From: an uncultured Eubacteriales bacterium
GTDB taxonomy: Bacteria > Bacillota > Clostridia > Oscillospirales > Acutalibacteraceae
Direction: 5' to 3'
NCBI GenBank assembly: GCA_964529775.1
Contig: CAZGXK010000001.1
Location: 1 to 53,907, forward strand
DNA length: 53,907 nt
Position 1 is the stretch's first letter. Each line of letters opens with the position of its first letter. Both the position numbers and the translations under genes were made by a program. Under the pieces are notes generated by a model that ran no database searches, was not told where the DNA came from, and saw only the letters and a program-made list of their open reading frames with translations. Positions 39,725-52,930 of this stretch are shown one piece after another.

Positions 39725-39742
39725 AGAGAGGGAGTGTGTGCG

Positions 39743-40092: not shown

Positions 40093-40128
40093 ATCGGCGC
40101 CGGAAAACCGGCGCCGATTGGTGTTTTT
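40093..40128. terminator. intrinsic terminator between convergent genes
   Basis: ATCGGCGCCGG-AAAA-CCGGCGCCGAT, an 11-bp stem, followed by TGGTGTTTTT. Confidence 0.8.
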
Positions 40129-40143
40129 CGAGGGTGAGGGAAG

Positions 40144-41874
40144 CTACGCGGCGGACGGCTGGACCGGCTCGCTCTGCGGCGCCTCCTCGACGGCGATCGA
40201 CGTCACCGTGCAGAGCTCGTCCGGGGACTGCTCCCACGCCTCGGCGTCCGCCACCCGAAGGGTGACCGTGTCGCCTGGGGAGGCGAAGGGGAGCGCGGGC
40301 GAGAGCGAGAGGGAGGCGCGGTAGATGTGCGGGTCGTCTTGCAGACGCAGGTAGTAGTTGGTGGTGCCGTCGAGGACGGCGGTGGAGATCTCGGCGACGG
40401 TGCCGGAAACTTCTTTTGTTCCCGTCTCCCCCGGTGAGATGTCGTCGATGTCCTCCGACTGGGCGAGTTTCTCGCGGTAGGCGACGCTCGCCCCGCTCAC
40501 CGTGTCCCCGGTGCCCACGATTTGATACCGCTGCACATCCACAAAGGCGTACATCTTCACGAGCCCCGAGGCGTCTTTGAGGGACATGAAATAGGTGGGC
40601 CGGTCGGCCACGTTGAGCAGAAGCGGGAAGGTCGCCTGATAATTGAGGTGCTGCACCTGCCCCTCGGCCGAGGCCATCGCGGAATATTCCTCCGCGCCCG
40701 GCACGGTGTAGAAATGGGTCTCTTTGGTGCGCATATTCACCAGCACAAAGCCGATGTTGGATTCGTCCGCGGTGGCGGAGGTCATGCCGGTGTAGAGGTA
40801 GACGTCGTCGTTGTTCGCGATGTAGTTGTATCCCTCGGTGACGAGGCGCACGCCGCGCTGCCCGAAGTAGGCGTTGATGAAGCCGTCCTGGAACTGGCCG
40901 TTCCAATCCAGCTGCCGCACGATGAGGTCCGCGTCGAACACCCTGTCCACCCACTGCGGGATTTCCGCGAGCGTGTAATACTGGGATTCGCCGGTGATGG
41001 CGTTGCACAGTACCGCACCCTCCACATCGATGCCGCTCCACAGCGCGATGCGGTAGGTCATGGTGGGGGCGATCCAGTAGGGGGTGCCGGTGTCGTCGAC
41101 CTCAAACAGCACGTTGCCGAAAATTTTGGTGGGGTAGGCGAAACGCAGATGGCGCGAGATGTTGCGCAGGAACAGCTCGCTCTCGGAATAGCGGATCTGG
41201 CTGCCCTGCGGCAGGCGCACCAGAGTGGTCTCCTGAGTGGCCATATCCACGCTGATGTAGCCGGGGATGCCGGAGGACTGGTTGTTCCACCACTTGAAGA
41301 AATCGGCGTAGACGAGAGGGGTCACCCGCACGGGGCGGCCGTTGACGTTGATTTGGGTGTAGTCGTCGGAGATCTCAAACTGCGAGACGAGGTCCGGTAT
41401 GGTGCCGAGCTGGCGCTGGCCGAGCTGTTCCGCCATGTCTTTGTCCACCACAGGGATCTGGGACATCGAGAGCTCGGCGACCTCGGAGGCGAAATTGCCC
41501 TCGCTGATGGTGATCAAATCGCGGTAGGCGTTCGCGTGAAAGATCTCCGCCCCCGCCAGATCCCCCAGCAGCAGCACCGCGACAATCACGAGCGCCACGG
41601 CCGCCACCCGGAAGGGGGCGCGCTTTAAAAGGGCGCGTATGTCGGGGGCGTGAAAGGAGAAGGTGCCGTCCGCCGTGCCGGTGGCAACGCCGCGCAGGAA
41701 GCGGAGAATTTTGCCCGCCTCAAAGCACACCAGCCACACGATCAGCAGCGTGATCACAAACCGCCAGAAGAGCGGGGAGCGCAGATGGATGGGCGGCAGC
41801 GAGAACCAGTAGAAAAGAAAAGAGATGAGCAGAGCCGCCAGTGTGCTGAGGAGATACGAGACCGATTTTTTCAC
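40144..41874 (-). CDS. conserved membrane protein of unknown function (3 N-terminal TM helices plus a large extracytoplasmic domain)
   Basis: GTG start at 41874, 6 nt after AAAGGAGCG, 576 aa. Three hydrophobic helices are followed by about 430 aa of soluble domain. GC3-rich codon usage matches the neighbouring genes. Family not recognised. Confidence 0.75.
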   Translation of the reverse strand: MKKSVSYLLSTLAALLISFLFYWFSLPPIHLRSPLFWRFVITLLIVWLVCFEAGKILRFLRGVATGTADGTFSFHAPDIRALLKRAPFRVAAVALVIVAVLLLGDLAGAEIFHANAYRDLITISEGNFASEVAELSMSQIPVVDKDMAEQLGQRQLGTIPDLVSQFEISDDYTQINVNGRPVRVTPLVYADFFKWWNNQSSGIPGYISVDMATQETTLVRLPQGSQIRYSESELFLRNISRHLRFAYPTKIFGNVLFEVDDTGTPYWIAPTMTYRIALWSGIDVEGAVLCNAITGESQYYTLAEIPQWVDRVFDADLIVRQLDWNGQFQDGFINAYFGQRGVRLVTEGYNYIANNDDVYLYTGMTSATADESNIGFVLVNMRTKETHFYTVPGAEEYSAMASAEGQVQHLNYQATFPLLLNVADRPTYFMSLKDASGLVKMYAFVDVQRYQIVGTGDTVSGASVAYREKLAQSEDIDDISPGETGTKEVSGTVAEISTAVLDGTTNYYLRLQDDPHIYRASLSLSPALPFASPGDTVTLRVADAEAWEQSPDELCTVTSIAVEEAPQSEPVQPSAA

Positions 41875-41892
41875 GTTTTTCGCTCCTTTCAC

Positions 41893-41921
41893 TTGACAAT
41901 GCGGGAAAAGTGCGGTATACT
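41893..41921 (+). promoter_or_regulatory. promoter P1 (TTGACA-17 nt-TATACT)
   Basis: TTGACA at 41893-41898 and TATACT at 41916-41921. Reads rightwards, towards and antisense to the XRE gene. Confidence 0.65.
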
Positions 41922-41927
41922 TAATAA

Positions 41928-41941
41928 CGAACAAATGTTCT
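41928..41941. promoter_or_regulatory. LexA (Cheo/SOS) box 1
   Basis: CGAACAAATGTTCT matches the Gram-positive LexA consensus CGAACRNRYGTTYC at 13 of 14 positions. It begins 7 nt after the -10 of P1. Confidence 0.7.
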
Positions 41942-41963
41942 GTTAAGGGAGGCGAGCGGCGGC

Positions 41964-42152
41964 TTGGAGAAGGCAAAAGAGAGCGCGGTGCCGGACGGCG
42001 GAGAAGCGGACGGGTCGCGCCTGTCGGTGCTTGCGCGCGCCGTGGAAGACGCCGCGGGCGGATGTCCGGACGTCGCCGCGCGGATCATCGAGGCTCTGGT
42101 GAGGGATATCGGTCAATCGGCATCGAGCAGGGATTTGAGGCGGGAGAGGTAA
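41964..42152 (+). CDS. small hypothetical protein (62 aa), candidate SOS-induced factor
   Basis: TTG start 12 nt after AAGGGAGG. GC3-rich codons. Helical-looking sequence SRLSVLARAVEDAAGGCPDVAARIIEALVRDIG. Overlaps the 3' end of the convergent XRE gene by 40 nt. Coding status is uncertain. Confidence 0.35.
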   Translation: MEKAKESAVPDGGEADGSRLSVLARAVEDAAGGCPDVAARIIEALVRDIGQSASSRDLRRER

Positions 42153-42454
42153 TCGTCGAGCTGCTCCTGCGTGAGATCCTCCCCCTTTTTGAGAATTCCG
42201 TGTGAGCGGAACGCCTCGCTCAGCAGCGAGAGCGCGGTCGGCTCGTCCTCGCCGAGCAGCCACGCCGGCGTGACGCAGAGCGCGCGGGCGATCTTCTCCA
42301 GACGGTCCGCCGGTATCTTCGAGACGGTGCCTGCCTCATAGCGCTGAAGCACCGATTTGGCATAGCCTGTCCGCGCGGAGAGCTCGCCGAATGTCAGCCC
42401 CGCGGCCCGGCGCGCTTCTTTGAGCCGGGCGGGAATCGGCCGACTGTTCTCCAT
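42113..42454 (-). CDS. XRE/cI-type helix-turn-helix repressor (no S24 peptidase domain)
   Basis: Start at ATG 42454, 113 aa. IPARLKEARRAAGLTFGELSARTGYAKSVLQRYEAGTVSKIPADRLEKIARALCVTPAWLLG is a classical HTH_XRE, followed by a 45-aa tail only. Confidence 0.88.
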   Translation of the reverse strand: MENSRPIPARLKEARRAAGLTFGELSARTGYAKSVLQRYEAGTVSKIPADRLEKIARALCVTPAWLLGEDEPTALSLLSEAFRSHGILKKGEDLTQEQLDDYLSRLKSLLDAD

Positions 42455-42493
42455 GCTATTCACCGCCCCCGTGCGAAAATTCCCGTCCCTTTG

Positions 42494-42522
42494 ATTATAG
42501 CAAATGATGCCCGCTTTTTCAA
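42494..42522 (-). promoter_or_regulatory. promoter of the XRE repressor gene (TTGAAA-17 nt-TATAAT on the minus strand)
   Basis: The reverse complement reads TTGAAA (42522-42517), a 17-nt spacer, and TATAAT (42499-42494). It lies about 40 nt upstream of the XRE start and is divergent from P2. Confidence 0.7.
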
Positions 42523-42550
42523 CCGAAACGCAAAATTTTCCGAAAAGGGC

Positions 42551-42579
42551 TTGACAAAAAACGAAAAATGTGGTATAAT
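42551..42579 (+). promoter_or_regulatory. promoter P2 (TTGACA-17 nt-TATAAT with TG extension)
   Basis: TTGACA at 42551-42556, a spacer ending in TGTGG, and TATAAT at 42574-42579. The sequence is clearly paralogous to P1. Confidence 0.8.
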
Positions 42580-42585
42580 AAGGGA

Positions 42586-42599
42586 CGAACAAACGTTCT
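42586..42599. promoter_or_regulatory. LexA (Cheo/SOS) box 2
   Basis: CGAACAAACGTTCT differs from box 1 at a single position. It begins 7 nt after the -10 of P2, the same geometry as at P1. Confidence 0.72.
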
Positions 42600-43170
42600 T
42601 TATAGAGGACGGTCTCCCTCCGCTTCGGGCGGTCGCCGAAGGATATCCGGGGGCCCGGAAGGCGGACAAGAGGGGTTCGTCTGTTTCATGCGTCCCGAAA
42701 ACGGGACGGCATGGGAGAGAGAGGCACGAAAACCCAAGGGGGAAGTCCGCACGGATGCCGCTGATGAAGAGGAGCGCGGATTGAGTGTTCCGAAAATGGG
42801 ACAGCAGCGACGGGCCGGGCGGCGATGAGCCGAGGGCGAGGGGTATTCGCGCGGGCTTTGCCTTTCCCCGTGCTTTGAGGAATCCGAGCGGCCGAAGCGC
42901 GCGGGGCAGGGGGGAGAAGAGCGCTCCGTGCCCGATGCGGGCGGACTTTGCCCGGAAGGCCGCTGTTTGCATGGGAGTTTCGCGGATAACGGGACTCCCT
43001 TTGGGTGAGAACGGGGAAAGGCGGCGCTGCACACGGAGTGGCCGCTCCATACCCCAGGCGTTTGCGCCCCCCTGAACCCGCGGCGCGAAAGGCGCGGGCA
43101 GGGGGAAAAAAGAGGATATTTCAGAGAGACCATCGAGAATATTTTATCGGCGGTGTCCTCACACCACCGA
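42600..43170 (+). ncRNA. candidate large structured non-coding RNA or long structured leader (about 570 nt)
   Basis: No credible ORF in any frame; only R/G/P-rich shadow ORFs without an RBS. Many local hairpins: GTCCCG-AAAA-CGGGAC at 42692-42707, GTTCC-GAAAAT-GGGAC at 42787-42802, GGGAGT...ACTCCC at 42973-42999, and a long interrupted stem CCCCCTG..CCCGCG...CGCGGG.CAGGGGG at about 43060-43106. Class not established. Confidence 0.4.
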
Positions 43171-43183
43171 AAGAAAGGGGAGC

Positions 43184-43483
43184 ATGAGAATGATCTGCAA
43201 AGGCTGCGGGGAACGGTTGGAAGCCTGGGAGCTGGAGACGGTGAACGAATGGGTCTCGTACCGGGGAAGGGAGGTGCTGGTGCCGGTGGACACCCTCTGC
43301 CCGGTGTGCGGCGGCTCGGAGTTCGCACTGGAGGGGGAGTGCGCGGAGTGCGGGCGGATGACGGACGAAACGGCGCTGAGGGACGGGCTGTGCCCCGCCT
43401 GCGCGAGGGAGGCCGAGGAGATGTGGCGGGAGATGACCCCTGCGCAGCGAAAGTATCTGCTGGGGCTGGACGAAGGGGAATAG
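43184..43483 (+). CDS. small double zinc-ribbon protein (4 CxxC pairs)
   Basis: 99 aa after an AAAGGGGAG RBS. CKGC...CPVC and CAEC...CPAC. GC3-rich codons like the neighbouring genes. Confidence 0.65.
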   Translation: MRMICKGCGERLEAWELETVNEWVSYRGREVLVPVDTLCPVCGGSEFALEGECAECGRMTDETALRDGLCPACAREAEEMWREMTPAQRKYLLGLDEGE

Positions 43484-43954
43484 CGGACCGCTTTCGTGAT
43501 GCCGGTGCCGTTTCCCGTTTCCGATGACATCCGCCACGCGGGCGCGGCCGGGGCGCTTGAAGAATCTGCCGCTCCTGTCCTCGCCGGGGCCGTGGCGCGG
43601 ATGCTTCAGATCGGCGAATCGGCGCGGTGTTCCCGCAGGATTTTCCGGTTTGGGACGCGTGTGCCGCGGAGGGCGAGACAACCGCCGAGGACCACGGAGG
43701 CCCTCGCCATAAGGAAAAGGCACCTATTCTGACCCGTCTGTGGGGGCAGATACACGCCTGTGTGTGCTGCCTTCGGGGCAAAAGCGACGGACGGCCGCTC
43801 CCGGGGCGGGAGAAACCACAGACGCTGGACGGCCCGCTATTCGGCTTTGAGGGCACCGCCGGGCCGCTTCAAAAAGCGGCGGCCGTTCCGATGCCCGAAA
43901 ACGCGCGCCCGTGCCCCAGGGGAAGAGCACAGGGGTGAAAGGGGGAAAAGCACA

Positions 43955-44308
43955 TTGACGGACAAGCAGAAAAAATTTGCGGATGAATTTATCCGCCGGG
44001 GGGACGCGCGCGAGGCGTGGGTCGCCGCCGGGTTCAGCGGGCGCTCGGCGGAGACGTACATCCCCCGTGTGCTGGGCCGCGAGGATGTGGCGCAGTACAT
44101 CGAGAGCCGGCTCGGGGGGAGCAAGGACCCCGGCATCGCGGGCAGGACGGAGATTCTGCGGTATCTGACCCGCCTGTTGCGCGGCAGGGATACGGGGGAG
44201 CGGGAGCGCCTTCGGGCGGCGGAACTGCTCGGCAAGGGGTGCGGACTGTTCTCGGACAAGACGAGAGAGGAGAGTTCGGGAGTGACGATTGTGGATGATG
44301 TGCGATGA
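43955..44308 (+). CDS. phage terminase small subunit
   Basis: TTG start at 43955 after AAAGGGGGAAAAG, 117 aa. LTDKQKKFADEFIRRGDAREAWVAAGFSGRSAETYIPRVLGREDVAQYIESRL matches the Terminase_2-type HTH N-terminus. The stop overlaps the terL start (ATGA). Confidence 0.8.
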   Translation: MTDKQKKFADEFIRRGDAREAWVAAGFSGRSAETYIPRVLGREDVAQYIESRLGGSKDPGIAGRTEILRYLTRLLRGRDTGERERLRAAELLGKGCGLFSDKTREESSGVTIVDDVR

Positions 44309-45615
44309 ACGGGCGGACGGTGAGTCTGAGAGAGACGGTAGGGTCGGGCTACGGGGCGTTTTGGCGGTGGCGCGGGCGGTACCGCGCGGTGAAGGGCGGC
44401 CGCGCCTCCAAGAAGAGCTGCACGACGGCGCTGTGGCTGATTGTGAACATCATGCGGATGCGGGGGGCGAACGCGCTGGTGGTGCGCAGGACCTACCGCA
44501 GCCTGCGGGACAGCTGCTATGCCCAGCTGCGCTGGGCGATTCACCGCTTGCGCGCGGACGCGTGGTGGAGCGCCAGGGAGAACCCTCTGGAACTCGTCTA
44601 CAGGCCGACGGGGCAGCGCATCGCTTTCCGGGGCCTGGACGACCCCCTGAAGGTCTCCTCCATCGCGGTGGAGACGGGCAGCTTGTGCTGGCTGTGGGTG
44701 GAGGAGGCGTACGAGATCGCGAGCGAGAGCGATTTCGACACGCTGGACGAGGCGATACGCGGAGAGGTCGCGCCGCCGCTCTTCAAGCAGACGACGCTGA
44801 CTTTTAACCCGTGGAGCGGGCGGCACTGGCTGAAGGGCCGGTTTTTCGACCGGAAAAGCCCGGACGTGCTGGCGATGACGACCGATTACCGCTGCAACGA
44901 GTGGCTGGACGACGCCGACCGCGCGATGTTCCGGCGTATGGAGCGCGAAAACCCGCGTCGGTACCGGGTGGCCGGGCTCGGCGAATGGGGGATGGCGGAG
45001 GGGCTTGTCTACGACGACTGGGAGGTGGCGCCGTTTGACGTGCGGGAACTGCTCACGGGCGAGGGCGGAGAGGAAATCCGCTGCGTGTACGGGCTGGATT
45101 ACGGGTACAGCAACGACCCGACGGCGTTTATCGCGGCGGCGGCGGACGGGCGGCGCAGGAGGCTGTATATTTTCGACGAGTTCGTGGGCGCGCGCATGGT
45201 GAACAGCGAGATTGCGCGGATGATTGTGCGTAAGGGCTATCAGAAGGAGCGCATCCGGGCGGACAGCGCGGAGCCGAAGAGCAACGAGGAACTGAGGCGG
45301 CTGGGCATTTCGCGGATCACCCCCGCGCCGAAGGGGCGGGACAGCGTGCTCTACGGCATCTCGGCGCTGAGGGAATACCACATGGTGGTGCATCCCCGGT
45401 GCCGCAACACCATAGCGGAGCTTGCGAGCTACGCCTGGGAGACGCAGAGGGACGGCACCGGCGTCAACCGGCCGGCGGACCGCGACAATCACCTGATGGA
45501 CGCGCTGCGCTACGCGATGGCCGACGCGAAAAGAGGATGCCGGGCGGAGCAGTGGAGCGCGGGGCTCTTCGAGAGCGGGATCACCGCGCGCGACCTGCTT
45601 GGGAGCCGGACGTGA
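44305..45615 (+). CDS. phage terminase large subunit (PBSX-like)
   Basis: 436 aa. Walker-A-like VKGGRASKKS, Walker-B-like LCWLWVEEA, and a C-terminal nuclease region (YGLDYGYSNDPTAF, DRDNHLMDALRYA). Confidence 0.88.
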   Translation: MNGRTVSLRETVGSGYGAFWRWRGRYRAVKGGRASKKSCTTALWLIVNIMRMRGANALVVRRTYRSLRDSCYAQLRWAIHRLRADAWWSARENPLELVYRPTGQRIAFRGLDDPLKVSSIAVETGSLCWLWVEEAYEIASESDFDTLDEAIRGEVAPPLFKQTTLTFNPWSGRHWLKGRFFDRKSPDVLAMTTDYRCNEWLDDADRAMFRRMERENPRRYRVAGLGEWGMAEGLVYDDWEVAPFDVRELLTGEGGEEIRCVYGLDYGYSNDPTAFIAAAADGRRRRLYIFDEFVGARMVNSEIARMIVRKGYQKERIRADSAEPKSNEELRRLGISRITPAPKGRDSVLYGISALREYHMVVHPRCRNTIAELASYAWETQRDGTGVNRPADRDNHLMDALRYAMADAKRGCRAEQWSAGLFESGITARDLLGSRT

Positions 45616-45636: not shown

Positions 45637-45816
45637 ATGAAGGTGGCGATACTGGCGGCGATGTTTTTGCTGACGGGCGGCGGCGCGCTGCTGGCGCGGA
45701 GAGCGCGCGGGCGGCGGAAAAGGGCGGTTCCCCCGCCGGGGGAGCCGAGCCGCGAAGAGCGGTATATGATGAATTTCCTGCGGTATGACGGCACGCCGCA
45801 GGAGGAGGTGAGATGA
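45637..45816 (+). CDS. small membrane protein (59 aa), hypothetical
   Basis: Not in the track because it is under 60 aa. GAAGGAGGAAGG RBS, then ATG 45637: MKVAILAAMFLLTGGGALLARRARGRRKR... The stop at 45814-45816 overlaps the portal ATG at 45813. Confidence 0.5.
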   Translation: MKVAILAAMFLLTGGGALLARRARGRRKRAVPPPGEPSREERYMMNFLRYDGTPQEEVR

Positions 45817-47402
45817 TGGACGGCAGGGCGAGGGAGATTTTCCGGGAGTACGACGAGGGGGTGAGGTACAAGGCGTCGCTCGGGGAGCTGGGGCTTGTGG
45901 AGCAGGGGAAGCGAAACGAGCGGTTTTACCTGGGCGATCAGTGGCACGGGGCGCAGTGCGGCGGAGAGCGTCCGCTGGTGCGGTACAACGTGATCAAGCG
46001 GATCGGCGACTACAAGACGGCGATGGTGAGCGGCGCGCCGATGCGGGTGAGCTATTACGCCGAGGGGGAACCCGACGGGGACGGGCGGGGCGGGACGCCG
46101 TCTTCCGGCTCGGGAGAACGGAATGTGGCGGAGGCGCTGGGGGATTTATCCGCCTATTTTGACGCGAGTGCGCAGAGACTGGGGCTTGACGAGATGCGCG
46201 AGAGGGTGCTGCGCGACGCGTTTATCCGGGGCACCGCGTTTCTCTACACCTACTGGGATTCGGACGTGCCCACCGGGTTGTATGCCGACGCCGGGCGAAC
46301 CGTGCCGGTGCGCGGGGACATCGCCTGCGAGACGCTGGACATCGAGCAGGTGACGATGGGCGATCCCGGGCAGGAGGACATCCAAAAGCAGCCGTACCTG
46401 CTGATCTCTCAGCGCCTTCCCCTCGCCCGGGTGAGAGAGCGGGCGGAAGAATACGGGCTGCCCCCGGCGCGGAGGGACGCTATCCGCCCGGACGCGCCGT
46501 CTTCCCCCGCGGGGGACGGCGGGACGGCGACCGTGGTCACCCGTCTTTGGAAAACCGGGCGCGGGGACGGCGTGCGGGTGATGGCCGCGCAGGCGACCAG
46601 GGAGGTAATGCTGAGGGAGCCGTGGAATCTCGGGATTCGCCGCTACCCCTTAAGCGTGTTTCGCTGGGAGTGCGGACAGGGTCTCGCCTACGGGGAGAGC
46701 GAGGTGACGCATCTCATCCCGAACCAGATCGCGATCAACCGTCTGCTCACCGCGAACGTGTGGGCGGGCATGATGACGGGGGCACCGATCACCGTGGTGA
46801 ACGGGGACGTGGTGCAGGGGCCGGTGACCAACGACCCCGGTCAGGTGCTGAAAGTGTTCGGCTCGGCGGAGGAGGTCGGCGGCGCCGTCCGCTATGTCTC
46901 CCCTCCGGACACCTCCTCGGGGCTGCTGCGCACCGTCGCCTCTCTGATTGGGGACACCCTCTCGAACGCGGGGGCGAACGAGGCGGCGCTCGGGGATGTG
47001 AAGGCGGAAAACGCCGCCGCGATTCTCGCGCTTCAGGAGGCGGCGTCGCTGCCGCTGCAATCGGTACAGCGCCGTTTCACCCGTTTTATGCGGGACGTCG
47101 CCCTCACCTGGGCGGAGTTCTGGGTGATGACCTACGGCGCGAGGCCCCTGAGGGTCGGCGGCCGGTACCGGCCGTTTGACGGCAGGCTCTACCGCGATTT
47201 GGTGCTGCGCGCGAGAGTGGAGGTGACGGGCTCGCCCCTGTGGGCGCGCTCTCAGATGCAGGCGGCGTTGGATAAGCTGCTGGACGGCGGCTGGATTGGC
47301 GGGGCGGACTATATCGCCCACCTGCCGGGGTGCGCTCTGCCGGGGCAGCGGGAGCTGTTGCGGACGCTGAGGGAGAAAGAAGGCAAGGAGGTCAGGGCAT
47401 GA
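45813..47402 (+). CDS. phage portal protein
   Basis: 529 aa directly after terL. N-terminal NERFYLGDQW-type segment, plus size and position typical of SPP1-like portals. Confidence 0.78.
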   Translation: MMDGRAREIFREYDEGVRYKASLGELGLVEQGKRNERFYLGDQWHGAQCGGERPLVRYNVIKRIGDYKTAMVSGAPMRVSYYAEGEPDGDGRGGTPSSGSGERNVAEALGDLSAYFDASAQRLGLDEMRERVLRDAFIRGTAFLYTYWDSDVPTGLYADAGRTVPVRGDIACETLDIEQVTMGDPGQEDIQKQPYLLISQRLPLARVRERAEEYGLPPARRDAIRPDAPSSPAGDGGTATVVTRLWKTGRGDGVRVMAAQATREVMLREPWNLGIRRYPLSVFRWECGQGLAYGESEVTHLIPNQIAINRLLTANVWAGMMTGAPITVVNGDVVQGPVTNDPGQVLKVFGSAEEVGGAVRYVSPPDTSSGLLRTVASLIGDTLSNAGANEAALGDVKAENAAAILALQEAASLPLQSVQRRFTRFMRDVALTWAEFWVMTYGARPLRVGGRYRPFDGRLYRDLVLRARVEVTGSPLWARSQMQAALDKLLDGGWIGGADYIAHLPGCALPGQRELLRTLREKEGKEVRA

Positions 47403-48115
47403 AGGCGAAGGACGAGACGCCGAAAGAGGCTTTGCGGGCGGATCCGCCCCGGGAGGCCGGAGAGGCCGGGCGGGAGGAAAGCGGAGAGGAGGAATGGTAT
47501 CTGCCGGTGTACAACGGGGAGGTTCGCCCGGTGCGCCGGACCGAGCGGGAGGAGATCACCGCTCTCCTGCAGCTCGGGATGAAGCAGAGGGATTTTCTGC
47601 CGGAGTACGAACTGCTCCGGGAAATGGCGGAGGACGAGGGGGTCACGGTGCGCGAGTGGGTGCGGGACCGCGCCGACCGGCACGAGAAGGCGCTGCTGAG
47701 CGACGCCGTGGAGAAGTACGGAGAGCGGGACGGCACGGCGTTTTACGAGATGCACAGGCAGAGCCGTCTCGCCCGCTGCCGTGAGCAGGAGGAGAGGGAG
47801 AAGGCGCGCGAGATGAGCGAAAAACAGCGGGAGGCATCCCGTTGGCAGAGCGAGTTTGCCGAGCTCAAAGAGGCGGTGCCGCGCTTTGAGACGCCGGAAG
47901 ATGTGCCTTTGCAGGTGAAGAATCTCGCGCTCGCCCGCGGTATTCCGCTGCTGGACGCGTACCACCGATTCGCGTTTGACGAGCGGCGCCGGGCGATGGA
48001 GGAGAAGTTTGAGGAGGAGATGGCGAGGGCGCTTTCGACCGGACCGCTTTCCGCCACCGAACGGGGCGGACCGGACAGCGCCAGAGAGGCTTTTTTGCGG
48101 GGATTATCCCTGTGA
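47399..48115 (+). CDS. phage scaffolding protein (acidic, helical)
   Basis: ATG at 47399 overlaps the portal stop. 238 aa, very rich in E/R/A and coiled-coil-like. Located between portal and capsid. Confidence 0.6.
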   Translation: MKAKDETPKEALRADPPREAGEAGREESGEEEWYLPVYNGEVRPVRRTEREEITALLQLGMKQRDFLPEYELLREMAEDEGVTVREWVRDRADRHEKALLSDAVEKYGERDGTAFYEMHRQSRLARCREQEEREKAREMSEKQREASRWQSEFAELKEAVPRFETPEDVPLQVKNLALARGIPLLDAYHRFAFDERRRAMEEKFEEEMARALSTGPLSATERGGPDSAREAFLRGLSL

Positions 48116-48198
48116 GAGAAGGCTTTGAAACTGCCGCGCGCCCGAGGGCGCGGTCACGCGGGCCGGGGGCGCGGCCGACATATGAAGGAGGAGAGCTT

Positions 48199-49107
48199 AT
48201 GGCTATCAACACGTTATCGTTTCGCGAGGAGATGTCGGGAGAACTGGAGCGCGCGGTACAGCGCGGGGCGGTCGTCGGGTTTTTCGAGGACAACCCGCTG
48301 CGCGCGAAATTTGTGGGCGCGAAGACGGTGCTCATCCCGGAGATGGGGCTGAGCGGACTGGGGGATTACGACCGCGACAACGGCTTTGTGCGGGGGGCGA
48401 TCACCGTCACGAGCGAGCCGTACGAGCTTAAGCAGGACCGCGCACGCACGTTCCAGCTGGACCGGGAGGACAACGACGAGACGGGCATCGCCTCGCTCGC
48501 CGGTCAGGTGCTGGGAGAGTTTGTGCGCACCAAGGTGGTGCCGGAGGTGGACGCCTACTGCCTCTCGAAAATCGGTGGGTACGCCGTCTCGGAGGAGCAG
48601 ACGGTGACCGGAGCCCCGCAGACCGAGGCGTATGCGATGTTCCAGACCGCTCTGGGACAGGCGCAGGAGAACGTGGGGTTTGACGAGGAGATCGTCTGCT
48701 TTGTGAGCGGAGATTTCCTGCGGGCTCTGCAGAGTTCCCCGGAGATCGCGAGGCAAATCGGCATCTCGGATTTTCGCAAGGGGGACGTGAACCTGCAGGT
48801 GAAATCGCTCGACGGGGTGGCGCTGCTGCCGGTGCCCGCCTCGCGCATGAAGACGTCGTTCACCTTTGATTCCGGCGCGGACGGGGACGAGGGGGGATTC
48901 CACCCCGACCCGAGCGCGAAATCCATCGGATTTTTGCTCTGTCCGAAGCGCGCGGCGTCGCTTGTGAAGAAGAGCGAGACGGTGAGGGTGTTTACCCCGG
49001 AGCAGAACATCAAGGCGGACGCCTGGAAATTCGATTACCGGCTGTACTACGACGTGTTTCTGAAGAACAGTCTGAAGCCGGGCATCCGCGCCTATGTGAC
49101 CGAGTGA
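48199..49107 (+). CDS. phage major capsid protein
   Basis: ATG at 48199 after a GAAGGAGGAG RBS, 302 aa. The size, position after the scaffold and overall sequence character are capsid-like. The fold was not verified. Confidence 0.7.
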   Translation: MAINTLSFREEMSGELERAVQRGAVVGFFEDNPLRAKFVGAKTVLIPEMGLSGLGDYDRDNGFVRGAITVTSEPYELKQDRARTFQLDREDNDETGIASLAGQVLGEFVRTKVVPEVDAYCLSKIGGYAVSEEQTVTGAPQTEAYAMFQTALGQAQENVGFDEEIVCFVSGDFLRALQSSPEIARQIGISDFRKGDVNLQVKSLDGVALLPVPASRMKTSFTFDSGADGDEGGFHPDPSAKSIGFLLCPKRAASLVKKSETVRVFTPEQNIKADAWKFDYRLYYDVFLKNSLKPGIRAYVTE

Positions 49108-49136
49108 AAAAACCGAAAACGGGGAGGAGAGACGTG

Positions 49137-49910
49137 ATGGAGATACTCGAGAGCGCGCTTGTCTTTCGCGACAACCACACCCTGCGCGGAAAAGCGCCCG
49201 CCGGGATTGTGCTGCACCACGCGGCGGGGACCGGCAGCGTGGAGGACGTGCACCGCTGGCACCTGCAAAACGGCTGGGCGGGCATCGGCTACCATTTTTA
49301 CGTGCGGCGGGACGGCAAGGTCTACCGCGGGCGGCCGGAAGAGTGGACGGGCGCACACGCCGTCGGCGCGAACGACCAGCTCGGCATCTGCGCCGAGGGC
49401 AATTTTGAGCGGGAGCGGATGAAACCGGCGCAAAAGCAGGCGATCGCCGAACTTGTCCGGGCGCTGAGGCGGAAATACGGGGCGCTCGCGTGTCACCGGC
49501 ACAGCGAGTACGGCAGCACCGCCTGCCCGGGGAGATATTTTCCGTTTGAGGAAATTGTGCGCGAGGGCGCGGGGGACGGCGCGGCGGCGAAGGACGCGAA
49601 TCTTGTGAAACGCTTTCAGAGCGCCTGCCTCGCGGACGGCATCCCCCTGCCGGTCTACGGCGCGGACGGCGTCTGGGAACGCGAGACCGAGGGCGCCGCG
49701 AGGCACGCGGTGGCGAGCGGGAGCCGGGGAGAGAGAGTGCGGCTGGCGCAGCAGGTCTGCATGGAGGCGAAAATCGGTCTGCCGTGCGGCGCGGACGGGA
49801 TTTTCGGCGCACACACGGCGGCCGCCGTGCGCGAGTTCCAAAAGCAAAAGGGACTGGTCATCGACGGGATTGCGGGGATAAAGACGTGGAAAGCGATGCT
49901 GGGGGTGTGA
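49137..49910 (+). CDS. N-acetylmuramoyl-L-alanine amidase (PGRP/Amidase_2) with C-terminal peptidoglycan-binding domain; endolysin
   Basis: IVLHHAAG, GWAGIGYHFYVRRDG, GAHAVGANDQ and STACPG motifs. C-terminus GADGIFGAHTAAAVREFQKQKGLVIDGIAGIKTW is PG_binding_1-like. ATG at 49137 follows GGAGGAG. Confidence 0.88.
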   Translation: MEILESALVFRDNHTLRGKAPAGIVLHHAAGTGSVEDVHRWHLQNGWAGIGYHFYVRRDGKVYRGRPEEWTGAHAVGANDQLGICAEGNFERERMKPAQKQAIAELVRALRRKYGALACHRHSEYGSTACPGRYFPFEEIVREGAGDGAAAKDANLVKRFQSACLADGIPLPVYGADGVWERETEGAARHAVASGSRGERVRLAQQVCMEAKIGLPCGADGIFGAHTAAAVREFQKQKGLVIDGIAGIKTWKAMLGV

Positions 49911-50191
49911 TGATGGCGGCGACACATGAGGCGCTGACACTCTCCCGGGAGAACGAGAGGCGGCTGACGGCGGTGGAGGAGCAGATGCAGACGCTGCAGG
50001 AGCTGTCGCGCACGGCCGCGGTGACCGAGAGCCTTGTGGCAAATTTGCGGGAGGACGTCCGCTCTATCCGGCGGGCGGTGGACGCGCTGACGGAAAAACC
50101 GGCCAGGCGCGCGGACGCGGTGGCGGCCGCCGTCTTGGGGGCGATCGCTTCCGGGGCGGTGTGCACCGCGCTGGGGATGCTGGTGCGGTGA
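49910..50191 (+). CDS. XhlA-like protein (coiled coil plus C-terminal TM)
   Basis: 93 aa. The ATG overlaps the amidase stop. Heptad-like N-terminus (LTAVEEQMQTLQEL...) and C-terminal helix AVAAAVLGAIASGAVCTALGMLV. This is the architecture of PBSX XhlA. Confidence 0.55.
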   Translation: MMAATHEALTLSRENERRLTAVEEQMQTLQELSRTAAVTESLVANLREDVRSIRRAVDALTEKPARRADAVAAAVLGAIASGAVCTALGMLVR

Positions 50192-50208
50192 CGGGAAAAG
50201 GGGGAGAA

Positions 50209-50427
50209 ATGATGCGCAAAGAGATCGGGGCGTGGCTGAGGGCGGCGGGAATCCGCGCGATCAAAACGGTGGCGCAGACGGCGGCGGCGAGCGTCGGCAC
50301 GGCGGTGCTGCTGGAATCGGTCGACTGGCTTGCGGTGGTTTCGGCGTCGCTGCTCGCGGGGATTCTGAGCCTGCTGACGAGCCTTGCGGGGCTGCCGGAA
50401 TTGGACGGCGGGGAGGCCAAACGGTGA
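50209..50427 (+). CDS. phage holin (r1t-type, two TM helices)
   Basis: 72 aa from ATG 50209 (AAGGGGGAG RBS). IRAIKTVAQTAAASVGTAVLLESVDWLAVVSASLLAGILSLLTSLAGLPE resembles r1t-family holins. Confidence 0.7.
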   Translation: MMRKEIGAWLRAAGIRAIKTVAQTAAASVGTAVLLESVDWLAVVSASLLAGILSLLTSLAGLPELDGGEAKR

Positions 50428-50780
50428 AGACGGGGGAAGAGCTGTGGAACCGGGCGCTGCGGCTGCTCCACTACGCGGATATCCGGAGGATGGACGGCGG
50501 GGAGGAGACGGCGCTGGCGATCATCAATCAGGTGGTGAGCGACCTGTGGTACGGCACCCGGGAGGGAGATTTTTCCCCTCTCTCGGAGCTGTCCGACCCG
50601 CTGCCGCTGACGGGAAGGCTGGTTGAGGACGTGATGCCGTACGGCGTGGCGATGCTGCTCTCGCAGAATCTGGGGGACGCGGACAGCCAGGCGCTGTTTG
50701 CCTCCCTCTACAATCAAAAACGCGCGCGGATGCGGGGCGGGGAAAGCCGTCTGGACGTGATGCCGCGCGGCGGGATGTGA
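50424..50780 (+). CDS. hypothetical protein (118 aa)
   Basis: GTG at 50424 overlaps the holin stop. GC3-rich codons. No family recognised. Confidence 0.5.
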   Translation: MKTGEELWNRALRLLHYADIRRMDGGEETALAIINQVVSDLWYGTREGDFSPLSELSDPLPLTGRLVEDVMPYGVAMLLSQNLGDADSQALFASLYNQKRARMRGGESRLDVMPRGGM

Positions 50781-50791
50781 GGAGGGAGATC

Positions 50792-52771
50792 ATGCGGTTT
50801 CCGGCGATGAAACGGGGGTTGCGGGCCGGCACCGCCACTCCGGCGCTCACCGGCGGGGCGCGCAAGGGGGTGCCGCGCGGGGAGATCGGCAGCGGTCAGC
50901 TCGCCGAGGCGCAAAACGTCTGCTATTGCGGGGAGACGCTGGTGAGCCGCCCGTGCTTTCGCGCGCGGGGGACGGCGGACGGGTGCGGGGGAGAGCTTCT
51001 CTCGGTGCGCGGCGGCATCTCTTTCGAGGGAGAGGCGGCATCGGTGATGCTCTTTCGCACCGGCGTCGGGGTGACGCTGCGGGTTATCGCCGGGGACGGG
51101 CGGGCGCTCGGGGCGTACACGCTCGCGGGGTGCGACGGCGGCGCGGCGGTGCCGGGGGTGGAGGAGCCGTTTTTGTTCTTCACCGGGCGGCGCGTCTATG
51201 TGCCGGGGGATGGCGAGCTTTTGCCGATGCCGGGGGAAAGACTCACCGTCCCGACGGTGCTCGTGAACGCGAGGCCCTACGGCGAGCGGGAGCAGGGCGT
51301 ACCGGCGGACGGGCATCTCCCCCCGCGGGGGGAGATGGCGCAGGCGCTCAACCGCTACTGCCCGCGCTACCGCTGCCTCTTCACGACCACGGGGGACGGG
51401 GAAAACCTCTTTGAGGTGATGGTGCTGCCGACTCCCGTCCCGCAGAGCGAGGAGGTGAAGCTGACCTACTTCGCCGAGGACGGGGAGTACACGGCGGTGT
51501 TCCCGGCGGGGAGCGAGGGGCCCGTGATTCTGCAGAGGGGCGAAAAGACGCTGGGGGGCGAAATCCGTCTGGTGCGGGAAAAGGGTTATGCGGTCACCCA
51601 TTTTTCGCTGCCGGCGGGAGGGGAAAACAACCTGTGCATCGAGGCGGGCTATGAGGCGGAGGACGCAGATCCCCCGGGCTTCGGGATGTGGCTGCCCGGT
51701 CAGAACGGCGGGGCGAGGCTGTTCCTCGGCGGCTACCGGGGGCAGCCCGCCGCCGTGCGGTGGAGCGAGACGGACGATCCCGGGTATTTTGCCGAGAGCG
51801 GCGTGCGCGCCGTGGGGCAGGCGGGGGAACCCGTCACCGCTTTCGGCAGGCAATCGGATATGCTGGCGGTTTTCAAGAGAGGCTCCACCCACTGTCTGAC
51901 CTACGCCGACCGCGAGACCGCCGGTTCCGGGGAGCGGGACAGGCAGGCGCGGGGCATTGCGCTCTCCACCCGCACCGTCTCCCCGTCGGTCGGGTGCGAC
52001 TGCCCGGACACGGTCGCGCTGTGCGAGGGGAAGCTGGTCTGGATGACCTCCGACGCCCGGGTGCACGCGCTGGTGACGGCCAGCGCGCACAGCAACCGCA
52101 ACGTGGTGGACGTGGGGGAAAACATCGCCCCCGCGATTCTCGGGCGCAGCGGCGTTTCGGAGAGGAGGGCGGCGAGCGCGCGGTCCGCTCCGGAAGGGTA
52201 CGCGCTGGCGGTGGCGGGGCGAATCTATCTGTTGAAGACCTCCGATCTCGCCTTTCGGAATCTCTCGTACTACTACCGGCAGAAAACGCTGGAAGAACAC
52301 CTGACGTGGGTGGAATGGACGCTGCCGGACGGGTGCGAAAACGCTTTTCTGCTGCCCGGCAGCGAGGTGACTCTCGGCCTCATCCGGGAGGGGACGCTCG
52401 CCGTCTACGCGGCGGGGGAACCTCTTTTCGGGGAGGGAGGCGAGCTGCGCGACGAGATCCCCGGCGAAGCGGGGGAGACCAGCCGGGTGGTCGCCTGTGT
52501 GGAGACGCGCGAGATGCCCCTCGGTTCCCGCTCGCAGACGGCGCGCGTGACGTCGGTCGCGCTGGAGGGGGAGTGCGAAGGGGCGACGGCGACCCCGATA
52601 ACCGACGGGCGGGAGCGGGAGCCGCAGACCTTCGCGCTGCGGGGGAGGCACACGGTGGTCCTCCCGGAAATGCCTCTGTGCCACCGCGCGGGCGTGCGGC
52701 TTCAGAGCGGGATGCCGCTGCGGTTTTTGGGGGCGGAAATTCTGTTCTCGCCGCGCGCGCACCTCGGATGA
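50792..52771 (+). CDS. hypothetical large protein (659 aa), possibly a virion or tail-proximal component
   Basis: ATG at 50792 after GAGGAGGGA (alternative GTG 50777). Long uninterrupted GC3-rich ORF that looks beta-rich. No recognisable motifs. Last gene before tRNA-Lys. Confidence 0.6.
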   Translation: MRFPAMKRGLRAGTATPALTGGARKGVPRGEIGSGQLAEAQNVCYCGETLVSRPCFRARGTADGCGGELLSVRGGISFEGEAASVMLFRTGVGVTLRVIAGDGRALGAYTLAGCDGGAAVPGVEEPFLFFTGRRVYVPGDGELLPMPGERLTVPTVLVNARPYGEREQGVPADGHLPPRGEMAQALNRYCPRYRCLFTTTGDGENLFEVMVLPTPVPQSEEVKLTYFAEDGEYTAVFPAGSEGPVILQRGEKTLGGEIRLVREKGYAVTHFSLPAGGENNLCIEAGYEAEDADPPGFGMWLPGQNGGARLFLGGYRGQPAAVRWSETDDPGYFAESGVRAVGQAGEPVTAFGRQSDMLAVFKRGSTHCLTYADRETAGSGERDRQARGIALSTRTVSPSVGCDCPDTVALCEGKLVWMTSDARVHALVTASAHSNRNVVDVGENIAPAILGRSGVSERRAASARSAPEGYALAVAGRIYLLKTSDLAFRNLSYYYRQKTLEEHLTWVEWTLPDGCENAFLLPGSEVTLGLIREGTLAVYAAGEPLFGEGGELRDEIPGEAGETSRVVACVETREMPLGSRSQTARVTSVALEGECEGATATPITDGREREPQTFALRGRHTVVLPEMPLCHRAGVRLQSGMPLRFLGAEILFSPRAHLG

Positions 52772-52854: not shown

Positions 52855-52930
52855 GATCCATTAGCTCAGTCGGCAGAGCACCTGACTTTTAATCAGGGTG
52901 TCCGGGGTTCGAATCCCCGATGGATCACCA
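52855..52930 (+). tRNA. tRNA-Lys (anticodon TTT)
   Basis: 76 nt folded by hand. Acceptor GATCCAT/ATGGATC, D arm GCTC-AGTCGGCA-GAGC, anticodon arm CCTGA-CTTTTAA-TCAGG, T arm CGGGG-TTCGAAT-CCCCG and encoded CCA. Confidence 0.93.

Follow-up and report, generated by a model that had tools for sequence, protein, structure and literature searches.

Our analysis of a 53,907-nt stretch of DNA (hereafter, the window) indicates that the region around the xre gene probably acts as the control switch for a particle module of podovirus-like type, domesticated or defective, in which two promoters, P1 and P2, are repressed by LexA, an XRE-family protein acts as a second lock, and the SOS response brings release. 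The elements of this switch, their geometry and the genes of the module are listed in Table 1; the promoter and its box are conserved in about 30 species. The positions of P1, P2, both boxes, Pxre and xre in an initial annotation of this DNA proved exact to the base. That annotation also proposed that the island is wired to the SOS response at two points, which is the most likely reading of the sequence and is strengthened by the recurrence of the boxed promoter in about 30 related loci.

Table 1. Positions of the control elements and genes of the module in the window.
Feature	Position	Strand	Details
mem576, 576-aa membrane protein gene	40144..41874	-	GC3 gene call; divergent from P1, co-directional with xre, which lies upstream
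P1, sigma-A type promoter	41893-41921	+	TTGACA 41893-41898, 17-nt spacer, TATACT 41916-41921; 11/12 consensus; island promoter family
Box 1, predicted LexA (Cheo)-type operator	41928-41941		CGAACAAATGTTCT
orf62, putative 62-aa orphan ORF	41964..42152	+	TTG start; RBS AAGGGAGG 11 nt upstream
xre, XRE-family HTH repressor, 113 aa	42113..42454	-	Pfam HTH_3/HTH_31; PHROG transcriptional regulators
Pxre, TTGAAA-17-TATAAT (TG-extended)	42522-42494	-	back to back with P2; 11/12 in promoter scan
P2, consensus sigma-A promoter	42551-42579	+	TTGACA 42551-42556, 17-nt spacer, TATAAT 42574-42579; 12/12
Box 2, predicted LexA (Cheo)-type operator	42586-42599		CGAACAAACGTTCT
Leader, non-coding, G+C-rich, structured, ~585 nt	42600..43183	+	between P2 and first gene
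Znr99, 99-aa double zinc-ribbon protein	43184..43483	+	weak Pfam zinc-ribbon matches; first operon gene
Small terminase subunit (TerS)	43925..44308	+	Pfam Terminase_2; tblastn to relatives; start approximate, ORF open from 43760
Large terminase subunit (TerL)	44305..45615	+	Pfam Terminase_3 and Terminase_3C
Portal protein (P22-like)	45813..47402	+	Pfam P22_portal; phrog_156
p261, probable scaffold protein	47330..48115	+	assigned by position only
Major head protein (MCP)	48112..49107	+	phrog_422, E=5e-77
Endolysin, N-acetylmuramoyl-L-alanine amidase with peptidoglycan-binding domain	49104..49910	+	Pfam Amidase_2 and PG_binding_1
Holin (r1t type)	50161..50427	+	Pfam Phage_r1t_holin, E=2e-10
p120, probable podovirus head-to-tail adaptor	50424..50780	+	the ORF open from 50232 is longer by an upstream extension
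p664, conserved large protein after adaptor	50777..52771	+	present in 25 loci
tRNA-Lys gene, downstream module boundary	52855..52930	+	own consensus promoter 52815-52843

After P1 and P2 alike, a gap of 6 nt separates the -10 element, which in P2 is preceded by TG and hence of the extended type, from the sequence CGAACAAA(T/C)GTTCT. Each box agrees with the LexA consensus CGAAC-N4-GTTCG (as quoted in PMC4551915 and PMC4234289) at 13 of its 14 positions, has an A/T-rich spacer and, beginning so close to the -10 element, would cover the expected transcription start. Judged by sequence, the two boxes are thus canonical Bacillota LexA (Cheo) operators placed over two co-directional promoter starts. 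They account for both occurrences of CGAAC-N4-GTTC in the window; the only other GAAC-N4-GTTC sites (4551 and 5031) are within the rpsK and rpsD coding sequences, and their spacers are rich in G+C. A scan for consensus promoters from 38000 to 53907 returned just four sites, namely P2 (12/12), P1 (11/12), Pxre (11/12) and the promoter of tRNA-Lys, and a repeat search identified the P1 and P2 modules as a 50-nt direct repeat of 74% identity, 658 nt apart. That promoters and palindromes came together by chance alone is a reading to which we give practically no credence. Two or more CGAAC-N4-GTTC sites did arise in 16 of 100 dinucleotide-shuffled windows of equal size; however, both boxes stand in the same register behind two of the four consensus promoters of 16 kb, and the arrangement is found again in about 30 independent genomes. 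It is mainly this retention of the promoter-plus-box unit in related loci, and less the counts within the window, that effectively refutes chance.

The comparison set comprised 80 related loci. In about 30 of these, from Acutalibacteraceae and Oscillospiraceae MAGs, a TTGACA-17-TAnnnT promoter followed by the box heads the operon of TerS/TerL, portal and capsid genes. When 1.19 Mb of TerL-related loci were scanned for GAAC-N4-GTTC with an A/T spacer, 31 of the 34 sites fell within the control region of an island. Each of the 31 modules examined, from 29 loci together with P1 and P2, has TTGACA or TTGAAC, a 17-nt spacer, TAnnnT and then the box, which in the relatives follows the -10 element after 7-15 nt. 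Not one of the 31 departs from GAAC and GTTC in its arms, while the flanks diverge; such constancy over about 30 diverged islands indicates continuing selection on exactly those bases. The boxed promoter was also considered as a general trait of the phage lineage, and this was rejected: the MCP relatives in IMG/VR are viral contigs of 33-39 kb that have no promoter-type boxes.

In the closest clade, the layout is promoter, box 1, hairpin, box 2 and first gene, and in these close relatives no separate promoter can be recognised for box 2. The window is atypical: here each of the two boxes comes with a promoter, and a private xre/orf62 cassette lies in between. P2 is 83% identical over 35 nt to the promoter of locus L004, as compared with 63% to P1. 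The description of P1 and P2 as paralogous twins therefore holds insofar as both belong to one promoter-operator family, but the nearest relative of P2 is its orthologue in another species (L004) rather than P1, and in related species the orthologue of P2 is the main promoter of the island.

From the motif, its position and a conservation that does not depend on the island's own repressor, we infer that LexA binds the boxes. Short palindromes are also bound by HTH repressors, and in the window and in clade 2 a divergent repressor gene adjoins the boxed promoter, the usual place of an operator, so that the palindromes might belong to an element-encoded repressor (XRE here, CI-like HTH+S24 proteins in relatives) and resemble LexA sites by coincidence or mimicry. 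We consider this very unlikely. In clade 2 the same box adjoins genes for HTH+Peptidase_S24 (CI-like) repressors, at a position homologous to that of xre, yet these repressors and that of L064 are only 31-41% identical to the HTH of the window XRE; for the repressors that adjoin the unchanged box, the HTH identity is about 31-38%. The box is also conserved, and even duplicated, in L003, L004, L006 and L236, where no regulator gene is adjacent, and conversely L237, of a more distant clade, has a short XRE and no such box. Moreover, the same sequence occurs at promoters outside the islands: in L007 at the promoter of a gene that encodes a small membrane protein and adjoins a DivIVA-like gene, and in L087-L097 as canonical CGAACATTTGTTCG on the promoter immediately after lexA. 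The host flanks of island-bearing genomes hold only one or two canonical boxes. A box that stays constant while its flanks change and the adjacent repressor varies from S24 CI-like to short XRE to none points to host LexA, and not XRE, as the binding protein.

The window contains no lexA or recA gene, and recA was found only in L141, an unrelated soil contig. The lexA promoters available for comparison are those of relatives of the L057 LexA, from related gut Clostridia; true lexA genes in this group are preceded by (C/A)AAAC-AAAT-GTTTG, which has the core AACAAATGTT in common with the boxes, and about 26 of about 30 distinct lexA promoters of the closest LexA relatives have the (C/A)AAAC...GTTTG form, with AAAC/GTTT on both arms. 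The LexA preference of the lineage may therefore be shifted, and GAAC/GTTC sites may be weaker or belong to another protein. Pursued further, this would make the boxes inherited yet weak or non-functional, with LexA preferring AAAC-N4-GTTT and control resting mainly on XRE and other factors. Such a situation appears improbable, considering that the GAAC/GTTC arms are invariant over about 30 diverged islands and that the L087-type lexA locus has both the GAAC/GTTC and the AAAC/GTTT form in a span of 800 nt. Autoregulated lexA operators, in addition, are often weaker variants. Clostridial LexA operators that are bound in vitro vary as GAAC-N4-GTT(C/T), and the C. difficile LexA binds GTTC and GTTT forms alike (PMC4234289). 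A differing motif at the organism's own lexA had been named in the initial annotation as evidence against LexA control; the motif of the relatives does depart from exact GAAC/GTTC, but lies within the known clostridial range. A perfect CIRCE element at hrcA indicates that canonical Bacillota operators are retained in the window organism. We retain host LexA as the predicted ligand of both boxes.

The module under this predicted control is part of the core chromosome, with the dnaK operon region on one side and tRNA-Lys on the other. Its gene content identifies it as a reduced podovirus-like module of about 10 kb, with a predicted zinc-ribbon protein, TerS, TerL, portal, scaffold, capsid, endolysin, holin, adaptor and p664. 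Profile searches between mem576 and tRNA-Lys revealed no integrase or recombinase and no replication (primase/rep) genes; likewise, none were found in those relatives that are bounded by host genes. In clade 2, a recombinase was suspected among conserved genes lying upstream, but these proved to encode GH3 glycosidases of the host. As for a Cro-like regulator, none is found behind P2, which is followed by the leader and then by zinc-ribbon and terminase genes. On these grounds the element does not qualify as a temperate prophage with a CI/Cro switch, and we have abandoned both the temperate-type island and the cI/Cro-like divergent switch that had been proposed for it. Nor can it be classed as a PICI, as integrase and replication module were not found. 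Rather, genes for head, packaging and lysis, combined with the lack of replication and integration genes and with an operator of host type, mark it as a predicted PBSX/GTA-like defective module. Several MAGs hold two copies of the module, and 18 loci compared by upstream context formed 12 clusters. The window does not have the 741-913-aa gene seen between MCP and amidase in relatives, nor the large genes that follow p664 in L236, nor anything like the fibre-repeat protein of L237.

The transcript expected from P2 begins with the leader, which holds two near-identical hairpins, GTCCCGAAAACGGGAC (42692) and GTTCCGAAAATGGGAC (42787). Its folding energy has an MFE z-score of -3.9, and none of 100 shuffled sequences folds as well; it shows no frame-specific GC3 signal, has no homologue, and matches no Rfam family even at E<=1. 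The leader is followed by Znr99, which is kept directly behind the boxes in L002-L006 at 32-49% identity; in L236, a 103-aa ORF starting with MICQEC takes its position. Further downstream, p261 is kept between portal and MCP in 40 loci, although neither Pfam nor PHROG assigns it to a family. The product of p120, whose homologues have 122-126 aa, is probably a podovirus head-to-tail adaptor: its AF2 model (pLDDT 84) best matches the folds of Sf6 gp7 and further tail adaptors of podoviruses, with a probability of 0.98, a TM of ~0.58 and a weak E-value of 0.2. For p664, which is possibly a tail hub or nozzle, Pfam and PHROG gave no match and the PDB only faint beta-propeller repeats, and the AF2 model is unusable (pLDDT 32, from a 3-sequence alignment).

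The xre/orf62 cassette between the two boxed promoters is, as far as these searches reach, private to the window organism. The XRE protein has no relative below E=1e-8 among 5.8 billion proteins, i.e., xre is a singleton, and the sole match in an exact look-up is one 1.4-kb Logan contig identical to the window. As the initial annotation had it, the protein is protease-less: Pfam detects an HTH domain (HTH_3/HTH_31) and no peptidase domain, and the self-cleaving S24 domain that is present in the clade-2 repressors is absent. The small frame orf62 is convergent with xre and overlaps its 3' end by 40 nt. The GC content of orf62 by codon position is 0.70/0.54/0.76, with only moderate codon bias; no homologue was found in the 80 related loci, and 1.84 billion representative proteins yielded low-complexity matches only. 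A T[T/C]CCGAAAANGG motif with three copies at 42538-42799 was considered as an XRE operator and set aside, the pattern having been defined from those same copies; CCGAAAA is enriched throughout the window, and the motif is therefore kept merely as a lead.

The absence of a self-cleaving domain from XRE leads us to propose P1 as the device that removes it. P1, box 1 and orf62 face xre, such that a small ORF lies directly behind a boxed promoter and near a repressor gene of non-cleavable type. In addition, the + strand has no predicted terminator-like site from P1 as far as the operon, and transcripts from P1 should therefore cross xre in antisense. The manner in which P1 counters XRE is conjectural, as is the role of orf62 as an antirepressor; a protein antirepressor is no likelier than an antisense mechanism. 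Set against antirepressor modules of the Tum/Ant type, the small ORF is found in the right position, but orf62 displays neither the homology nor the conservation. It could also be that P1 is a leftover second island promoter devoid of any regulatory role, either reading into the operon or silent, and that orf62 is not a gene. In favour of this are an orf62 unmatched in every search, a cassette that is unique, and close relatives in which one promoter is followed by two boxes. We take it to be unlikely, though it deserves some weight; a promoter with an 11/12 consensus match and an intact box is not expected of a decaying relic, and its orientation gives a transcript antisense to xre with no predicted terminator between.

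Box 1 had also been placed in the only plausible upstream region of mem576. This does not hold, given that mem576 lies directly downstream of xre on the same strand, which makes read-through from Pxre an alternative source of its transcript. A by-eye candidate for a sigma-A promoter of mem576 overlapping box 1 (TTAACA-18-AAGTAT, minus strand) is weak and does not appear in the promoter scan; it was rejected. The start codon of mem576 agrees with the public gene call on L001. Pfam, PHROG and PDB searches gave no match for its product, which is thus assigned to no family or structure; its homologues, of 60-64% identity, adjoin the island in L003 and L006, making mem576 a conserved island neighbour common to these loci and the window.

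Taken together, the proposed mechanism is as follows. In uninduced cells, a dimer of host LexA on box 1 and on box 2 would block RNA polymerase, and XRE, expressed from Pxre, would lock P2 or the leader a second time, in an element-specific way. Upon DNA damage, RecA-stimulated self-cleavage of LexA would free P1 and P2. P2 would then transcribe the leader and the packaging, head and lysis operon, while P1 would fire convergently into xre and remove XRE by antisense transcription or transcriptional collision, possibly aided by the 62-aa product of orf62 as an antirepressor. The outcome would be particle production and lysis in SOS-induced cells.

The closest parallel for the placement of the boxes is GIL01 of Bacillus thuringiensis, whose P1 start is closely followed by a CGAAC-N4-GTTCG box that LexA binds. 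As in the window, the box lies right behind the start of a strong phage promoter and there are multiple LexA sites, dinBox1 and dinBox1b (PMC4551915); also alike is the lack of a CI-type self-cleaving repressor, so that SOS control is exerted directly by host LexA, as predicted here. GIL01, however, is a replicating linear plasmid-prophage (a tectivirus) with boxes on early or regulatory genes and with gp7, which stabilises LexA, whereas in the window the module is chromosomal and non-replicating, has xre as well, and carries the box at the promoter of its packaging, structural and lysis genes. No homologue of gp7 was found in the window. PBSX of Bacillus subtilis resembles the window in being defective and GTA-like, in having a LexA-controlled gene next to its repressor, and in being SOS-inducible, the last two being predictions for the window. 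The Xre protein of PBSX is reportedly, like that of the window, a short 113-aa XRE-family repressor that has no peptidase domain. Its xkdA is listed as lexA/SOS-regulated (PMC3896406). In contrast to the window, PBSX is myovirus-like, spans about 28 kb, uses a dedicated late sigma factor, Xpf, and has in xkdA the gene of an ImmA/IrrE-type protease homologue; in the window no such protease or sigma factor is present, the genes are podovirus-like, and the LexA-type boxes lie directly on the operon promoter.

Tum of coliphage 186 and the Gifsy antirepressors share with the window a non-self-cleaving repressor and, apart from it, a LexA-boxed promoter in front of a small ORF; in the window this is orf62, directed at the repressor gene. 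However, orf62 has no similarity to Tum or any other protein, stands behind a motif of Gram-positive type and is not conserved in relatives. The promoter PrstA of CTXphi in Vibrio cholerae is under dual repression by host LexA and the divergent, element-encoded HTH repressor RstR (cited in PMC12527982), a likeness to the dual control that we predict for the window; yet CTXphi is filamentous, has a LexA motif of Gram-negative type and controls replication and integration genes, and the window has a second LexA-boxed promoter on the far side of the repressor gene. In pBS32 of B. subtilis, host LexA acts on sigN, the regulator of a phage-like cell-killing element (PMC10601692), and in the alphaproteobacterial GTAs (RcGTA, Dinoroseobacter) the influence of LexA and SOS is indirect, via CckA/CtrA (PMC6473078 and related papers); in the window, unlike in either, the structural operon has the operator at its own promoter.

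Because LexA control of GIL01, CTXphi, PBSX xkdA and pBS32 sigN is established, the principle is not new. What is new is the placement of the operator: in a minimal, non-replicating element, it stands at the promoter that drives the packaging, capsid and lysis genes. Also new is its consistency across three repressor arrangements and some 30 species of gut and rumen Clostridia, which are abundant but little studied. More tentatively, these loci may represent a widespread and previously undescribed family of podovirus-like modules of 8-16 kb, devoid of integrase and replication genes, in gut and rumen Clostridia including Acutalibacteraceae and Oscillospiraceae. Two clades of this possible family would be LexA-gated, SOS-triggered and GTA-like, with LexA operators that are often two in number with a terminator between, sometimes double-locked by a CI-like or XRE repressor; the window would then be a LexA-gated antisense rewiring against a non-cleavable repressor, and DNA-damaged cells would lyse and release small DNA-filled capsids.

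If the modules do make particles, DNA-damaging drugs and inflammation could lead to lysis, and possibly to generalised DNA transfer, in major gut commensals. The conserved module could also serve as a natural SOS reporter promoter where genetic tools are lacking, and further elements of this kind can be searched for by the signature TTGACA-17-TAnnnT, a gap of 7-15 nt and CGAACAAAYGTTC, followed by terminase genes.

Reading the sequence of 41700-42900 showed that the coordinates given in the initial annotation for the two sigma-A type promoters P1 and P2, the LexA (Cheo)-type palindromes 3' of them (boxes 1 and 2) and the XRE-family repressor gene, xre, are all exact. The description of the repressor as protease-less also holds; a domain search gives HTH only. 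A consensus scan of 38000-53907 reports only four promoter-like sites, namely P2, P1, the promoter of xre (Pxre) and a tRNA-Lys promoter. CGAAC-N4-GTTC occurs twice in the 53,907 nt, as boxes 1 and 2; the two other matches to GAAC-N4-GTTC lie within rpsK and rpsD and have G+C-rich spacers. The P1 and P2 modules form a 50-nt direct repeat (74% identity, 658 nt apart). In both, the -10 element and GAAC are separated by 7 nt, a gap found elsewhere only in the related loci L013 and L032.

Coordinates of control features in the window and of regions and elements at related loci (L handles)
Feature	Position	Strand	Description
P1	TTGACA 41893-41898; TATACT 41916-41921	+	17-nt spacer; sequence reading of 41700-42900
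Box 1, CGAACAAATGTTCT	41928-41941		after P1; sequence reading
P2	TTGACA 42551-42556; TATAAT 42574-42579	+	17-nt spacer; TG upstream; sequence reading
Box 2, CGAACAAACGTTCT	42586-42599		after P2; sequence reading
Pxre, TTGAAA-17-TATAAT	42522-42494	-	back to back with P2; promoter scan
xre	42113-42454	-	113 aa; HTH domains only
CIRCE operator, TTAGCACTC-N9-GAGTGCTAA	33257-33283		perfect match; just 5' of hrcA-grpE-dnaK-dnaJ
Clade-1 control regions	L003 9069-9265; L006 9131-9258; L004 2411-2527; L236 328-447		hairpin terminator-like
L009 element	8299-15146, ~7 kb		tRNA and GDSL lipase on one side, oxidoreductase and YfhO on the other
L236 element, clade 1			741-aa gene after capsid gene; two more large genes after p664 homologue
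L237 element	2450-17946, ~15.5 kb		MreB on one side, DUF1846 and GlmS on the other

For comparison, 80 loci were fetched from reference genomes with TerL (49-68% identity), nearly all of them Acutalibacteraceae, Oscillospiraceae and other Clostridia MAGs from gut and rumen. Their 1.19 Mb hold 34 GAAC-N4-GTTC sites with an A/T spacer, 31 of which, in 29 loci, are in the control region 5' of the packaging genes. Each of the 31 modules, P1 and P2 among them, is built of TTGACA (TTGAAC once), a 17-nt spacer, TAnnnT and a box 7-15 nt past the -10. Neither the GAAC nor the GTTC arm varies, the box spacer is AAA(T/C) in most, and the flanks have diverged. The box is absent from more distant loci, which have lower G+C and shuffled gene order, and was not found on 33-39 kb viral contigs with related capsid genes. 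Thus, the sequence comparison indicates that the boxed promoter is a conserved, selected trait of two chromosomal island clades. Most modules have an A-tract at positions 8-11 of the 17-nt promoter spacer (20-28 of 32 island promoters at each position), usually inside G-AAAA-(T/G)G, as in the window at 41899-41915 and 42557-42573. Such conservation exceeds what a sigma-A promoter needs, and the tract could bind a further factor or reflect a need for a particular DNA shape.

By synteny, the boxed islands split into two clades. Clade 2 has a divergent, CI-like repressor of 213-249 aa with HTH_3 and Peptidase_S24 domains. Clade 1 (L002-L006, L236) is closest to the window; in L003, L004, L006 and L236 no regulator gene adjoins the promoter, which is followed in order by box 1, a short leader (hairpin and T-run), box 2, RBS and zinc-ribbon gene, with three boxes in the control region of L003. 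Box 2 of these relatives directly follows what looks like a leader terminator, and no separate promoter is recognisable for it, whereas each box of the window has its own full promoter and the ~600 nt between the two modules hold orf62 (a 62-aa ORF after P1), xre and Pxre. The window XRE is ~31-38% identical to the clade-2 repressors, in the HTH part only, and no closer relative was found in 5.8 billion proteins. Judging from 83% identity over 35 nt, P2 is clearly the ortholog of the main promoter of L004; P1, 63% identical to P2, is a more divergent member of the promoter family. The two promoters are therefore paralogous, as initially annotated, in the family sense, and not as a recent duplicate pair.

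The same operator thus stands beside three different repressor arrangements, which argues for a host factor as the box-binding protein. The sequence of the box is that of the canonical LexA operator of Gram-positive bacteria. In C. difficile, LexA operators of the GAAC-N4-GTTC and GAAC-N4-GTTT forms were identified and tested by SPR (PMC4234289), and in GIL01 LexA binds such a box just 3' of the P1 start (PMC4551915). The motif, its placement and the fact that it is conserved whatever the island repressor lend good support to LexA, which we consider the probable binder; our confidence is limited mainly by the variant box of the nearest lexA promoters, as the preference of LexA may have shifted in these lineages. 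The window itself contains none of the organism's own SOS genes. The related locus L057 has a true lexA (LexA_DNA_bind and S24 domains), with a palindrome, GCAAACAAATGTTTGC (4390-4405), overlapping its -35, and its LexA was used to fetch 80 lexA loci from metagenomes. Almost all of the closest (50-62% identity; many labelled human gut metagenome) carry (C/A)AAAC-AAAT-GTTTG or CAAACAATCGTTTG 5' of lexA. This variant, roughly 55-150 nt upstream of lexA in L082-L120, a large group of Clostridia, has AAAC/GTTT on both arms, not GAAC/GTTC, and it is this that would allow for a shifted preference. More distant lexA loci have CGAAC-N4-GTTCG or CGAAC-N4-GTTTG.

The initial annotation held that a different motif at the organism's own SOS promoters would speak against LexA. 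Among relatives, to which the comparison is confined, the outcome is mixed: the arms near lexA are AAAC/GTTT, but the lexA operator of the close lineages shares the AACAAATGTT core with the island boxes, differing in the outer arm (A/T versus G/C), and both forms coexist within 800 nt in L087-L097: the variant before lexA, and the canonical CGAACATTTGTTCG on the next promoter, which drives a 76-aa orphan. In our view, the lexA sites and the island boxes belong to a single motif, of which the lexA sites are variants that may have lower affinity. A box also occurs outside the island in L007, a gut Clostridia MAG locus (2091-2465, minus strand), where CGAACACTTGTTCT (+ strand) lies 6 nt past TATAAT in the promoter of a gene for a small membrane protein (113 aa); a DivIVA-domain-like gene follows, next to thrS. 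We take this arrangement to resemble Gram-positive SOS division inhibitors, and by analogy the 113-aa protein may, like YneA or SosA, inhibit cell division on SOS induction.

The window belongs to the core chromosome and begins with the rplO-secY-adk...rpsK-rpsD-rpoA cluster and a PBP/Mur (dcw) cluster, followed by tRNA-Thr, a perfect CIRCE operator and hrcA-grpE-dnaK-dnaJ, then ComEA-like, PHP and TSCPD genes, a 576-aa membrane protein gene (minus strand) and the switch. The CIRCE site is ordinary HrcA heat-shock control, and its perfect match is evidence that canonical Bacillota operators are kept in this organism. The + strand genes 3' of the switch encode a zinc-ribbon protein, TerS, TerL, a P22-like portal, a probable scaffold, the major head protein (phrog_422), an amidase endolysin, an r1t-type holin, a ~120-aa protein and a 664-aa protein; tRNA-Lys closes the run. 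The AF2 model of the 120-aa protein is confident (pLDDT 84), and its top fold matches are podovirus tail adaptors (Sf6 gp7: probability 0.98, TM ~0.58, weak E-value). Gene and domain annotation of the module finds no integrase, replication or Cro-like gene. The module is therefore a reduced podovirus-like unit of ~10 kb with head, adaptor, packaging and lysis functions rather than a temperate prophage, and the reading as a temperate island with a cI/Cro switch is not supported.

A family of podovirus-like modules of 7-16 kb that lack integrase and replication genes is widespread in Oscillospirales MAGs (L002-L081, L236, L237). The modules share TerS, TerL, portal, scaffold, MCP and adaptor; p664, fibre and lysis genes are variable, and more distant members have their genes in a shuffled order. 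The 33-39 kb viral contigs (L165-L183) also carry related capsid genes. Where host genes bound a relative, its sequence shows a small and self-contained element. L009 is a shortened copy, since most clade-2 loci share further genes past the adaptor; L237 encodes an 83-aa XRE, a fibre-repeat protein and an M15 endolysin and has no Cheo box; and L009, L236 and L237 encode no integrase and no replication functions. Upstream contexts vary (12 clusters among 18 loci), and several MAGs hold two copies. These elements may be vertically inherited, GTA-like or mobilised in some other way. The more distant locus L081 has four Cheo-type boxes (at 2706, 3794, 4595 and 9962); CGAACATAAGTTTG (2706) is directly 3' of TATAAT, and CGAACAAATGTTTT (9962) is just 5' of the RBS of the large terminase gene.

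Transcription from P1 would enter xre at its 3' end. With no terminator-like site predicted between P1 and the operon on the + strand, an SOS-induced P1 transcript should run antisense across xre. We conjecture that such transcription would remove XRE, with or without the orf62 protein, a route made plausible by the lack of a self-cleavage domain in XRE. orf62 has a good RBS and only moderate codon bias, and no homologues in the related loci or in a protein database search; a role of the P1 unit as antirepressor is plausible, resting on this orphan ORF. The 576-aa gene (40144-41874, minus strand) has the same direction as xre, 238 nt away, and may thus be read from Pxre. Co-regulation by box 1, as initially suggested, is possible and not required: a weak divergent promoter with box 1 as spacer, TTAACA-18-AAGTAT, is seen by eye and is not reported by the promoter scan. 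In L003, the ortholog has a candidate promoter, TTGCAA-17-TATACT (minus strand, by eye), ~270 nt from the first box. The protein has no Pfam, PHROG or PDB match. Homologues adjoin the island in L003 (7038-8729) and L006 (4338-5942), i.e., in three genomes with the window, at 60-64% identity; the gene could be part of the element or mark a shared chromosomal site.

The Xre of PBSX is short. PBSX pairs this repressor with a LexA-controlled xkdA (PMC3896406), and the window likewise has a short XRE and LexA-type boxes. In GIL01, a LexA box lies on a phage promoter (PMC4551915), as predicted for the window. These two systems are closest in logic to that of the window, which differs in that the LexA-type operator directly overlies the promoter from which a minimal podovirus-like module would express its structural and lysis genes.

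Inside the operon, the leader (42600-43183, 585 nt) and a stretch of ~440 nt before TerS (43484-43925) are G+C-rich, with neither coding signal nor homologues found. None of 100 shuffles folds as well as the leader (z = -3.9), which is much longer than those of close relatives, has no Rfam match and includes a pair of near-identical hairpins, GTCCCGAAAACGGGAC (42692) and GTTCCGAAAATGGGAC (42787). Exactly three copies of the 12-mer T[T/C]CCGAAAANGG are present in the window (42538-42549, 42693-42704 and 42788-42799), within 260 nt around P2 and the leader; the pattern was defined from these copies, and CCGAAAA is enriched window-wide (33 observed, 9.7 expected). The 12-mer is a candidate for an XRE operator or for a hairpin motif in the RNA.
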